In this document: positions 3,831 through 62,007 of the stretch, piece after piece
Numbering within the stretch: position 1 is the stretch's first letter
Layout of the letters: each line of letters opens with the position of its first letter
Assembly (NCBI GenBank): GCA_951406725.2
Contig: OX597828.1
Span: 71,858,001-71,922,000 of the forward strand
From: Octopus vulgaris
Lineage: Eukaryota
Length of the DNA: 64,000 nucleotides
Direction of reading: 5' to 3'
Notes under the pieces: model-generated
Database searches by the model: none
Seen by the model: the letters and a program-made list of their open reading frames with translations, nothing else
Told to the model about the DNA's origin: nothing
Program-made: the position numbers and the translations under genes

Positions 3831-4598
3831 ATTGATTTGACGAAACTACTTTCGCAACAAAATAAAGAACAGAAAAAAAAATACAAAAACGCCCCCCCCC
3901 CCACCGACGGTCCATGGTCTTCTTGGCGCAATTAGTTTCATTCGAGATGCCACGACCGTTGTAACAGGAAGGGTTTTCGTTGCAATTAAGAGAAACGTGC
4001 AATGGAAACCAGAAGCATGGAATGGTGAGCGCAGATTCTAGCGCCAACAGCGTCGAAGGTGCTTCAATGAATATTCTAAATGATGAAGGACCAAACGGAT
4101 TTGTACATGGGAGCTGCTGTTGTTGTTGTTGTTATTGTTGTTGTTGTTGTTATTGTTGTTGGTGTTGGTGTTGGTGTTAACGCTGTACTCAGTCATCACT
4201 TATGCAATATTTATCTATTTATCTTAGGAATCGTCTATATTCACCTTGGCAACATCCAGTTTAGTTTTTAGAGTTATAGAAAACGAGGACAGAGATCCCT
4301 TGGCACAGCACCAAGAATTCTGCACCAATCAGATTTCGCACCCTCTTCGTTTCTGATGGGATTCCTAATAATGTTGCTGCTGCTGCTGTTGTTGTTGTTG
4401 TTGTTGTAGTTATTATTGTTGTTGTTGTTGTTGAGTGAGAGAGCAGCGCATGCCATCAAAGTGGCAGTGGGGTAAAATATACGAAGCCCAGTATACCCAT
4501 CAGGACCCTTCTCCTCCTCCTCCTCCTCCTCCTCCTCCTCCTCCTCCTCTTCCTCCTCCTCCTCCTTCTCATCATCATCATCATCATCATCATTAATG

Positions 4599-4937
4599 AG
4601 GCGGCGAGCTGGCAGAATCGTTAGCAGGCCGGGCGAAATGCTTAGCGGTATTTCGTCTGCTGCTACGTTCTGAGTTCAAATTGCTCCTAGGTCGACTTTA
4701 CCTTCCATCCTTTCGGGATCGATTAAATAAGTACCAGTTACGCACTGAGGTCGATGTAATCGACTTATTCCCCTCTCCCAAGCTGCCTTTGTGGCAAAAA
4801 TTTGAAATCGTTATTATTATTAATATCCTTAGCGGTATTTCGTCTGTCTTTACGTTCTGAGTTGAAATTCTGCCGAGGTCGACTTTGCCTTTCATCCCTT
4901 CAGGGTCGATAAATTAAGTCCCAGTGGCGTACTGGGG

Positions 4938-11464: not shown

Positions 11465-11799
11465 CTGAACCCGCGCTTCGGTAAGATCACAGCGCAGGGC
11501 CAACTGCTCCCGAGCGTAGACATCCGGATAATGAGTCTTCTGGAAAATTCTTTCTAATTCATCCAGCTGGAAACTGGTAAATGTTGTCCGGTTGCGCCTC
11601 TTCTTCCTCTTCAGCTCACACCTTTCGGCTGCCTTCAGATTGTCCGTCAAGTTTAAACCTTCCGGAGTCTCAGACCGATGCTGGCCAAATTCCAACACTT
11701 TACTTAGAGACGAAGGTTTTAATTCCAGAATGTTATTTTCAGATTTTAAGTTCAAACCCTTCTTGCACGCCTTGTTTTTACTGCTGTCTTCTTCCATTG
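11465..11799 (-). CDS. Alx: Internal exon of an Alx/aristaless-like PRD-class homeobox gene (homeodomain residues 1-46 plus upstream linker)
   Basis: Translation [49 protein letters not shown] resembles ALX-family homeodomains (RRNRTTF and YAREQLA rather than Arx FTREELA). Donor CAG|GTGAGT at 11465/11464 falls after VQ, the typical PRD-class intron position. Acceptor TTATTACAG|CA-ATG at 11800/11799 (phase 1). The next exon (VWFQNRR) was not found in the window. Confidence 0.93.
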
Positions 11800-19982: not shown

Positions 19983-20016
<34 letters not shown>

Positions 20017-20034
20017 CACGAAAAAAAATAGATG

Positions 20035-20487
20035 GCATGTTAGACCTCCACTACTGGGGTAGACTAGAAAAGCTGAAACTGTATTCACTCCAACGACGCC
20101 GTGAACGCTACATTATCTGTATGATGTGGAAAATATTCCATCAGCACAGTCCAAATAATGTTGGCATCACCTTCAAAATACATCAAAGACTTGGACCCCG
20201 TGCCATTCGCCCACAACAAAAATCTAAATCGCATCTCATAATAACAATAAGGCACAATTATTTCACCTCAACTAGACCCGCTCTCTTCAACATTACACCA
20301 GGACACGTCAAAACAGAAACTGACCACACAAAATTTAAGAAGTCTTTGGACAAATTCCTTCAAACAGTCCCGGACAAACCACCCACACTCGAATATGTCT
20401 CCGCAAACAATAACTCTGCTCGAATGGGCCCAAATTCTTAATTGAAAGACTTCGCCAGGTGGTGCTATTAAGTTAGACGTGTCCTGG
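20035..20487 (+). mobile_element. CR1-like LINE 3' fragment
   Basis: YWGRLEKLKLYSLQRRRERY...FNITP...FKKSLDKFL, typical of a CR1-group ORF2 C-terminus. Confidence 0.8.
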
Positions 20488-26839: not shown

Positions 26840-27390
26840 CTGACAGTCCTTAAGAATTTGTGTTTCCACTGTCCTTAAGAATTTATTTGTTTCCACGGCC
26901 CCTCAGAATTTGCTGGTGTTTTCACTGCTCTTAACAATTTGTGTTCCCACTACCCTGCGAATTTGTGTTTCTACACATCTTAAGAATTTATTTGTCTCTC
27001 CACAGCCTCTCAGAATTTGCCTATGTTTTTACTGTCCTTTAGAATTTGCGTTTCAACCGGCCTTAAGAGTTTATTTGTGTCTCTACAGCCCTTCGGAATT
27101 TGCTTATGTTTCCACAGCTCTTAAGAATCTGTTTCCACGGCCCTTAAATATTTGCTTATGTTTTCACAGGCCTTTAGAATTTATGCTTCCACTGCCATTT
27201 ATGATGTGTTTCTTTTCACGGCCCTTAAGCTTTTATGTTTCCACAGTCCTTAACCCTTTGTTTGTTTCCACAGCCCTGAAGAATTTGTCTTTCCACTGCC
27301 CTTAAAAATTTATACTTCTACAGCCCCTAAGAATTTGCTTATGCTTCCACTGCTCTTAAGTATTTGTCTTCCCACAGCCCTTAAGGATTT
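26840..27390 (+). repeat. Degenerate minisatellite, 26-30 bp unit
   Basis: Recurrent ttccac(a/t/g)gcccttaagaattt(g/a)... Confidence 0.85.
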
Positions 27391-33259: not shown

Positions 33260-33773
33260 CCCCCGTCTGTCTTGATAGACAATGGGTCGCGCCAAGGGTG
33301 GGGCCTACTTTGATGATGAGCAGCGTCTGCTGTGACTGAACAGTCCAATTCTAGAGTGGCAGTCCCTGGTACAGTTGCTGCACACGAACATCGATGGGTA
33401 CGTGTGGGGTGTTGCTGCAGTTGTCCTCCTCCTGTCCCGCCTGTCCGACCACAGCTGTGCTCTCCTTTCCTCAGCCATGGAAACGCATTTCCTCACTGTC
33501 CGACGCCAGGCAGAGCGGTCAGCAGCTGTTACCTCCCACGTGTCCACACAGATGTTGGCAGTCCTCAGGTCGCGCTTGCATCGCGCTGTATCGTAGCTGT
33601 GGACGTCCCTTGGGTCGGGATCCCGTGGTGAGTTCGCTGTACAGGATGTCTTTAGGCATGCGACCGTCCTGCATGCGGCAGACGTGTCCGAGCCAGCGCA
33701 GTCGTCTCCGCACGAGGAGGGCATGCATGCTTGGCATATTAGTCTGTTCTAGGATGACTCCGTTTGGAGTCAT
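33260..33773 (-). mobile_element. RTE-clade LINE 3' fragment
   Basis: [38 protein letters not shown], then after a frameshift [12 protein letters not shown]...[17 protein letters not shown]. Confidence 0.85.
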
Positions 33774-33784
33774 GTATATATATT

Positions 33785-33853
<69 letters not shown>

Positions 33854-34001
33854 GGATATATATATGGATATATATGTATATATATATGGATATATATGTA
33901 TATATATATGTATGTATATATATATGTATATATGTATATATATATATGTATATATATACATGTATGTATATATATATGGGGTTATAGATACATATGTGTG
34001 T

Positions 34002-48757: not shown

Positions 48758-50121
48758 CGTGTTATTTATTCTGTTCTCCGTGGGAGCATAAGATGTTATA
48801 TGAAGTTCTGATGAGAATCAAATGAGGCGTGAAACCTGTCAAATAGTACCCTTTTTTTTTCTTTTTTTGGCCCACAAAAAGAAAGAAAAAGTCCCTTTTT
48901 TTTCATAAATGTCGTAATACAAAAACGGCTGCGATGTTGTGCTACCAAAAGCAGTTTCCGTCGCGCCACATTTCAGGGAAACCAAATGTCAAACAGTCAC
49001 TTTTAATAAAGATCTCTTTTAAGTTTTCGAAAGAAAGATGAAAATTAAAATCGAATAATTTTTTTGAGGTGGTCAGTCTTTGGCAATAAAAACATAAATC
49101 TTTTTCAAAAAAATTTGTAAAATAAGATTACACATTCCGTGGCGATGTGATTTGTGAGGTTTTAGTTTTCTCAAAATCCTTCTAATTCCTTCGATGATGG
49201 AACACTGATGAGTCAGGCACCACCTGTCCTCGTGGCACACCAGCTTATCCCATTTTACAAATAGTCTCAAGTTCTTTGGATCGTTTACAGCATTAAACCT
49301 CAACCATTTGTAAATTAACCCCACTCCCCCACTTCTTAAACAAACGCCGCCCCTCTTCCCCAATACTTGCCAAAACATTTGTTTTAAAATACAGTTTATT
49401 TCAACGAAAGCAGCCGTTGATTATCTGCCACTTATTAAACTCTAATTATCTGCTCTCGTTTATTATCTGTTTTCCTGTACGACCCATCCAACACCCAGCA
49501 CTTTTTCGATATTTACGTGAATATGTACCCCGCTGTGATAGCTTTTGGTGGCTGTCATCATATTATACGTGGGTTTATGCAACGAAATTATATCGGAACT
49601 TGGCATCTCATCAATCATTTCTGCTCACTGATAACACAATGTCTGACTCTTGTTTTAATCGTGACAAAGATTTTTCTTTTTAAATATGTTTAAGATATAG
49701 GGATTGTATCGCGTTTGTTTTTCTAAGAAAAAATATCACATTTCAAAATACCCATTATACTACTTATAATGTAAAATTGATATCTATAAATAAAGATGCA
49801 TGGCGTTTGTCATAGGCAATCACGTTATCACACAGATATTCCTAGGTAGAGACGTATGTTATCAAAGGTAGATATCAATAAATAAAGCTGTATATCATGT
49901 GTTATATCATATATATATATCATGATATCACGGTTTGTTATATCATGATATGATATATCATAGACAATTGTTGAAATCTGTTTTATATCAGAGAGGTACG
50001 TTATGACGTGTGTGTGTAGGTGCTTACATAGATATGATATAAAACAAATACAACACACACACATATGTATACATACATACATACATACATACATACATAC
50101 ATACATACATACATACATACA

Positions 50122-61302: not shown

Positions 61303-61352
<50 letters not shown>

Positions 61353-61446
61353 AGGTGTTTATTATCGTAAACTAAACTTGACTAAGCGTGTGTATGACGT
61401 ACTCTGAAAGGGGTTGCACTCGCCCCAAACACCGAATAGATAATTC

Positions 61447-61496
61447 CTTAAACTGACCGGTCAGTTTCGGCTATCGCCGTAGCCATCCTCAGTAAG
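61447..61496 (-). ncRNA. Type I hammerhead ribozyme motif, canonical core
   Basis: Minus strand reads ctta-CTGAGGA-t-ggcta(cggcga)tagcc-GAAA-CTGACCGGTCAG-TT-taag: stem I 4 bp, stem II 5 bp, palindromic stem III, GUU triplet. Confidence 0.85.
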
Positions 61497-61509
61497 TGCT
61501 ATTACAAAG

Positions 61510-61573
<64 letters not shown>

Positions 61574-61595
61574 TATATGTATATGAGTATATACA

Positions 61596-61629
<34 letters not shown>

Positions 61630-61659
61630 CATATATACATGCATATATATATATATATT

Positions 61660-61707
<48 letters not shown>

Positions 61708-61955
61708 TGTATGTATGTATGTATATATATAAATATATATGTAAATATAAATATATATGTATATATATATGTATATATATATATATATGTATGTATGTAT
61801 ACATATATATGTATGTATGTATATATATGTATATATATATACGTATGTACGTATATATATATATGTATGTATGCATGTATATATATATATATATATAAAT
61901 AAATATATATATGTGTGTGTGTGTGTATGTGTGTATGTATGTATATATATATATG

Positions 61956-62007
<52 letters not shown>

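Follow-up and report, generated by a model that had tools for sequence, protein, structure and literature searches.

The 64,000-nt stretch of Octopus vulgaris DNA analysed here (hereafter the window) is microsatellite-rich animal DNA that carries, on its minus strand at 61447-61496, a type I hammerhead motif lodged in a lone, decayed and old copy of a non-coding repeat. We would file this repeat among the non-LTR retrozymes, as a new family, a reading to which, together with weak or absent activity of the window copy, we assign a probability of roughly 0.8. More tentatively, and with the odds somewhat against it, we propose as a joint reading that stem III of the family ribozyme starts with a copy of the core ACUGA, such that the circle would hide its own catalytic strand while the palindrome in tandem units would free a double hammerhead, and that the tailed insertions of more than one turn arose from a Penelope reverse transcriptase copying the retrozyme circle. 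If this is true, insertions exceeding one turn and bearing a two-start tail would constitute a direct genomic footprint of such copying. The window copy is itself a fossil that matters little; the weight lies in the family-level footprint and the predicted switch. The family would extend animal retrozymes to an octopus and bears on two points that the text of PMC7229834 treats as open, namely the identity of the mobilising element and what quiets the ribozyme in the circle.

Judged by its anatomy, the feature at 61447-61496 is a real type I hammerhead motif: it shows the CUGANGA and GAAA strands, a NUH triplet and three stems, with stem I open (Table 1). A strict descriptor matched once in the window and never in 300 local block shuffles, and this is the sole well-formed canonical type I hammerhead in the 64 kb, in keeping with the original prediction, which had called it the most intact one present. 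The core strands, stem lengths, GUU triplet and extra U described there were all recovered, and the strand and cut site that it assigned appear right from the motif anatomy. The palindrome that it reported in stem III is likewise present, but spans 18 nt and not 14, because U17 and U1.1 complement A14 and A13. A chance arrangement in low-complexity DNA might be suspected, given that an Rfam scan of 61345-61520 at an E value of 10 matched no hammerhead model and that the 50-mer folds weakly (z -1.5), its minimum-energy fold being no hammerhead but one in which the core pairs with stem III. However, the empty shuffles, the 77 genome-wide matches to an intact-core pattern against none for the reversed control, and the covariation described below have already refuted this explanation, which retains practically no weight. 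At the scale of the whole window, Rfam output was swamped by microsatellite-driven miRNA matches (150 of 665 listed). Two further CUGAUGA...GAAAC half-motifs, at 48808 (+) and 58347 (-), are without proper stems.

Table 1. Features of the hammerhead motif and of the surrounding repeat copy; unit positions are numbered from the cut.
Feature	Position	Strand	Remark
Type I hammerhead motif (4-bp stem I, 5-bp stem II, palindromic stem III)	61447..61496	-	descriptor match
Stem I 5' strand CUUA	61496-61493	-	
Core strand C3-A9, CUGAGGA	61486..61492	-	intact
Extra U after core strand	61485	-	
Stem-loop II, GGCUA/UAGCC	61469..61484	-	5 bp, loop CGGCGA
GAAA core strand	61468-61465	-	
14-nt palindrome, stem III (A15.1-U16.1)	61452..61465		extends to 18 nt at 61450-61467
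Triplet GUU	61453-61451	-	
Predicted cleavage site after GUU, between 61451 and 61450	61450..61451	-	family: GUC or GUA
Stem I 3' strand UAAG	61450-61447	-	
Main remnant, unit 302-347 + 1-51	61400..61496	-	85/97 identical to subfamily A majority
Out-of-place piece, unit 57-75, joined to 302	61497..61515	-	junction removes outer stem I 5' strand
Unit 112-153	61361..61399	-	52-111 deleted
Unit 177-191, 3' end	61346..61360	-	in the family's 'long' end zone; 154-176 deleted
(TA)n tract at 3' end	61307..61350	.	family's usual target
(TA)n and mixed TA/CA microsatellite at 5' end	61514..62004	.	

Aligned to the majority sequence of subfamily A, the window copy reads in the unit order 57-75, 302-347, 1-51, 112-153 and 177-191; on this alignment it is an insertion of roughly 1.4 units that has three deletions and whose end falls in the long zone, at a TA tract. 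Of the outer stem I and long rod, the main remnant keeps the 3' strand alone. The piece between the two (TA)n tracts had earlier been taken for a unit of about 180 bp: its placement between the tracts stands, but it measures about 165-170 bp and is a deleted remnant of a 347-nt unit and not a unit in its own right. We also considered whether the short remnant represents a mini-circle of its own, and rejected this because the order of its pieces is not that of a circle and its junction is shared by none of 40 other matches beyond a few bases.

The damage weighs on the claim that the motif is the best candidate for an active ribozyme, which we cannot uphold. The core and all three stems are kept in 9 of 130 aligned copies, by a regular expression that counts too few of the copies devoid of the extra nucleotide, and the window copy is the only one of these with GUU, the other eight having GUC; across all 130, GUC occurs in 86 and GUU in seven. 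With the 5' strand of the outer stem I missing, the window copy is devoid of the extended stem I whose loop 1 would contact loop 2 in the family majorities, and its loop 2 (CGGCGA) shows two changes relative to the family CGGAAA. No second ribozyme of the family is found in the 64-kb window. In folding, its stem I pairs with a probability of 0.16-0.19 in the 50-mer and 0 in a longer context, as against 0.77-0.81 in the majorities. Strict active-fold probabilities of the 130 copies are low for all single motifs and of comparative value only. Because the outer stem I is lost, the triplet is GUU, loop 2 is changed and stem I pairing is low, the copy is predicted to show weak cleavage or none; it may be active, but probably at a low level.

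It is unlikely that the window copy is a still active monomeric ribozyme, folding briefly in transcription with a 4-bp stem I and a 5-bp stem III. Its core and stems II and III are perfect, it belongs to the 77 intact-core matches as well as to the nine complete copies, its stem III hairpin forms with a probability of 0.34-1.0, and minimal GUU hammerheads do cut, PMC3138052 ranking GUC and GUA fastest and listing GUU among the cleavable triplets. Against this stand the low stem I probability, the pairing of A13/A14 with U17/U1.1 at 0.31-0.96, the likely loss of the contact between outer stem I and loop 2, and the report that in Xenopus one of nine predicted genomic elements cleaved (10.64898/2026.07.22.740005). 

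At 11465-11799 (-), the window also encodes an internal aristaless-like (Alx) homeobox exon with an AG acceptor and a GT donor, the best solved match being ALX4 (E 8e-21). Co-option of the window copy as an intronic ribozyme on the pre-mRNA of this gene, on the same strand and 50 kb away, would draw on the upstream acceptor, which makes an earlier exon at higher coordinates likely, and on the fact that the core outlasted three deletions. However, a divergence of 12% from the majority is nothing unusual in this family, and the triplet and loop 2 changes speak against kept activity, leaving this scenario scarcely credible; a homologue search at E 1e-20 gave no first exon of the homeobox gene.

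Relatives of what we read as a decayed retrozyme copy likely number over a thousand in the genome, going by similarity searches of 2.8 Gb in 227 contigs. With the piece between the TA tracts as the query, 68 candidates were listed and the 40 that were scored held 41 matches, almost all beginning at stem I; unit queries from the three subfamilies returned 591, 1603 and 867 first-look candidates, of which the best 40 were scored in each case (counts are per query, with mutual overlap not counted). At the loci that were fetched, reading on downstream of the ribozyme leads back into the upstream sequence, with a tandem spacing of 347 nt. The three majority units measure 347, 357 and 352 nt, have a GC content of 37-41% and a mutual identity of 77-84%, and each closes on itself. 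The repeat thus displays the features of the non-LTR retrozymes: it is non-coding, 347-357 nt long and under 50% GC, with one type I hammerhead. The best non-self full matches are 80-90% identical, with none above 90% among the scored candidates. A young lineage was further sought among 20 loci of the 77 pattern matches, but their best mutual identities are just 75-88%. In our literature search the family was not described and no pairing with cephalopods or octopus was found; supplements and repeat databases may hold it. Of 21 sequencing runs with a related copy, all present as assembled contigs, none is listed as RNA; four of them, guessed to be RNA, contain scattered low-depth pieces with no shared start or end, which are silent on expression.

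Across the 130 aligned copies, stem I pairs as CCUUA/UAAGG or CUUAA/UUAAG and stem II as GGCUA/UAGCC or GGCAA/UUGCC, while the centre of stem III is ACCGGU, AACGUU, ACGCGU or ACGU, all of which are self-complementary. Stems I and II and the stem III centre covary between subfamilies; loop 2 is mostly CGGAAA (exact in 61 copies). In 30 natural copies of our choosing, 91% of the cells pair and 42 cells change on both sides, while slid controls, which are fairer since related sequences can beat a shuffle control, pair at 18-42%. The changes on both sides include the two central stem III pairs, which are a loop in the monomer and are needed only by the dimer; the outer four stem III pairs never changed on both sides in these copies. 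Hence, the strand-swapping of stem III that had been suggested for the window motif is well supported at the family level, by covariation as well as by folding. An imperfect palindrome with an ACCGAU centre, exact in 9 of the 77 core-intact matches and belonging to one lineage, tells against a strict need for the palindrome.

By hand count, these 77 matches have GUA in 57, GUC in 18 and GUU in two. We observed that the extra nucleotide after A9 tracks the triplet, with 14 GUC and no GUA among the 15 matches that have it and 57 GUA among the 62 that do not, an association for which shared descent alone may be responsible. The original prediction had also pointed to free variation of the core among genomic copies as a test: the core is kept somewhat better than expected (90 mismatches vs 133 in 1236 positions), although it decays in single copies. 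The excess falls at A/U and CpG sites and not at the other G/C sites, a pattern which we read as selection on source lineages with subsequent decay within each copy.

Folding of the majority sequences as circles gives z values of -5.1, -12.2 and -5.4 (40 shuffles each), and of 110 predicted pairs shared by the three, 72 are invariant, 12 compensatory and nine one-sided, the remaining 17 being broken in at least one subfamily. In the circle, pairing of the core CUG to the stem III CAG is predicted at 1.0, 1.0 and 0.84 at 25 C, and at 0.66 in subfamily C at 37 C. In two tandem units, the double hammerhead lies +0.7 to +1.8 kcal/mol above the ensemble, as opposed to +10 to +20 for two monomer folds. 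Such folding would be consistent with an off state, in which the monomer circle sequesters the core CUG against the stem III CAG, and an on state, in which tandem units form a double hammerhead via a 12-14 bp strand-swapped stem III. As the folded sequences are reconstructed majorities and the model is one without tertiary or loop-loop contacts, we treat the predicted switch as a lead. Most metazoan circles are described in PMC7229834 as leaving the ribozyme free, and hence as needing another block, with some mussel circles excepted.

We investigated the insertion footprint in 110 distinct loci, which remained of 131 fetched once 21 duplicates had been removed. The longest tract has its end at unit positions 135-172 in 38 loci, at 185-225 in 58 and elsewhere in 14; these two 3' end zones cover 23% of the unit and lie about 50 nt apart. 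The same two zones hold the ends of 14 of the 20 loci chosen by pattern. By contrast with this clustering, 5' ends are spread all round the unit, with only seven within 10 nt of the cut. Tracts are longer than one unit in 63 of the 110 loci, and a microsatellite flanks the 3' end in 72 (background 16%); that 107 tracts cross the cut site was forced by the queries and is not evidence. Among 50 divergent inverted pairs, 27 combine one long and one short arm, in five the two arms are alike and in 18 an end falls beyond the zones, the 23 pairs without the long/short pattern being put down to BLAST ends and later insertions. The longest tandem tracts comprise 2.2 and about 2.5 units, with no long array among the loci fetched (best 40 scored per search). 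At 345 of 348 positions, the first and second passes are free of fixed differences, and odd letters are common to the repeats within one insertion at 7.6% (tandem) and 6.8% (inverted), the value for two loci being 4.2%. These uniform passes and shared odd letters fit a circle or a uniform multimer as the template.

Penelope-like elements are reported to form partial tandems in which the 5' arm is inverted and one end bears a tail of 30-40 bp (10.1101/2021.04.23.441226), a tail that corresponds to the stretch lying between two internal reverse-transcription starts (PMC11167929), and circular templates have been proposed for their more-than-unit copies (PMC4209133). The octopus insertions present the layout of Penelope-mobilised sequences, with a tail on one end, an inverted 5' arm, a partial tandem and a microsatellite target, and the end-zone footprint favours Penelope enzymes as the mobilisers. 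The genome is rich in C-terminal GIY-YIG elements, some with intact 781-aa frames; in one such family, many 781-aa frames have equal scores, and it is likely young. Sequence common to the unit and a GIY-YIG element was not found in 30 of the 150 listed loci (6136 candidates) and eight extended regions, nor does the ORF list of the window hold a reverse transcriptase plus GIY-YIG frame flanked by the repeat. Two window frames, at 20016-20441 (+) and 33305-34001 (-), have what we take to be a resemblance to the 3' ends of LINE reverse transcriptases. We discarded an apparent chimera (L165/L174) of the repeat with a GIY-YIG element, since the two are separated by about 130 unrelated bases together with a TA tract. 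A more distant relative of the repeat (L174, 3965-4200 on the minus strand), 72-78% identical and with a degenerate hammerhead, is situated beside a separate Penelope-like insertion.

The same layout would be expected if the unit were a terminal repeat left over from an autonomous Penelope-like element that lost its body by 5' truncation, and both the extra nucleotide after A9 and the palindromic stem III are marks of Penelope hammerheads (PMC4209133). However, going upstream the tracts re-enter the unit itself, making up to 2.2-2.5 turns, and do not pass into a coding body; the whole unit folds as a conserved circle; and the lone unit-like piece near a GIY-YIG element is the one split off from it by the intervening tract and bases. 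We hence regard this as very unlikely. Under the retrozyme reading, a tandem transcript of the unit would be made and would cleave itself at the hammerhead to yield a small RNA circle, which a Penelope-like enzyme would then reverse-transcribe into TA microsatellites; in the window copy, the damage would have left a weak or inactive ribozyme.

The metazoan non-LTR retrozymes described in PMC7229834 are similar in being protein-free units of 170-400 nt with under 50% GC, one type I hammerhead per unit and a self-paired circle. The mussel repeats among them (350-390 bp) are close in size to the octopus units and are also the exception with a blocked ribozyme fold. Unlike the retrozymes described there, the octopus family mostly comprises dispersed insertions of 0.5-2.5 units with inverted arms, with no long arrays seen and all copies old, and its self-complementary stem III of 12-14 nt is longer than their 1-2 bp. 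A 2026 study of vertebrate retrozymes by Li, Clavereau and Pollet (10.64898/2026.07.22.740005) already derives animal retrozymes from Penelope elements, with one of nine elements active, and parallels our reading in its conclusion on the mobilising element and our observations in many decayed monomers. The evidence there is co-occurrence and terminal-repeat homology, whereas ours is the footprint left by insertion, the GIY-YIG loci examined having yielded no terminal repeat homologous to the unit; its text contains none of the terms 'tail', 'mollus' or 'octopus'.

The hammerheads of Penelope terminal repeats share with the octopus family the extra nucleotide separating positions 9 and 10.1, the G10.1-C11.1 pair and a palindromic stem III for dimers (PMC4209133), and the Penelope-like elements themselves share the two reverse-transcription starts giving a tail and the AT-rich targets (PMC11167929). 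In contrast to the minimal Penelope hammerheads as described, the octopus family has a ribozyme in which stem I is extended and bears an internal loop and loop 2 is rich in purines; its tail is about 50 nt and not 30-40, and its unit is without an open reading frame. A further parallel is the double hammerhead of newt satellite 2 and the avocado sunblotch viroid, in which tandem motifs share an elongated stem III and the monomer fails from a short stem III (PMC4209133, PMC6155905); the octopus stem III is long enough, and it is the pairing of the core to stem III that is predicted to block the monomer.

Other hammerhead-like sequences also occur in this genome. Ten loci (L132-L141, e.g. G000:C5:93384436) represent a separate repeat family with a minimal hammerhead that combines a long stem II with an ACGU stem III and an ACAC/GUGU stem I; they are often beside (AAT)n and have inverted arms, with no coding body within 4.5 kb in the ten loci. 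The terminal repeats of GIY-YIG elements at L174-L177 carry a hammerhead-like motif with a palindromic ACAUGU or ACCGGU stem III and with U3-A8 replacing C3-G8, a replacement known from Schistosoma (PMC4209133). Another locus (L142, about 4212-4790) is an inverted repeat of 290-bp arms, each with another hammerhead-like motif. Within the window, a degenerate minisatellite array with a period of 25-29 bp spans 26843-27390.
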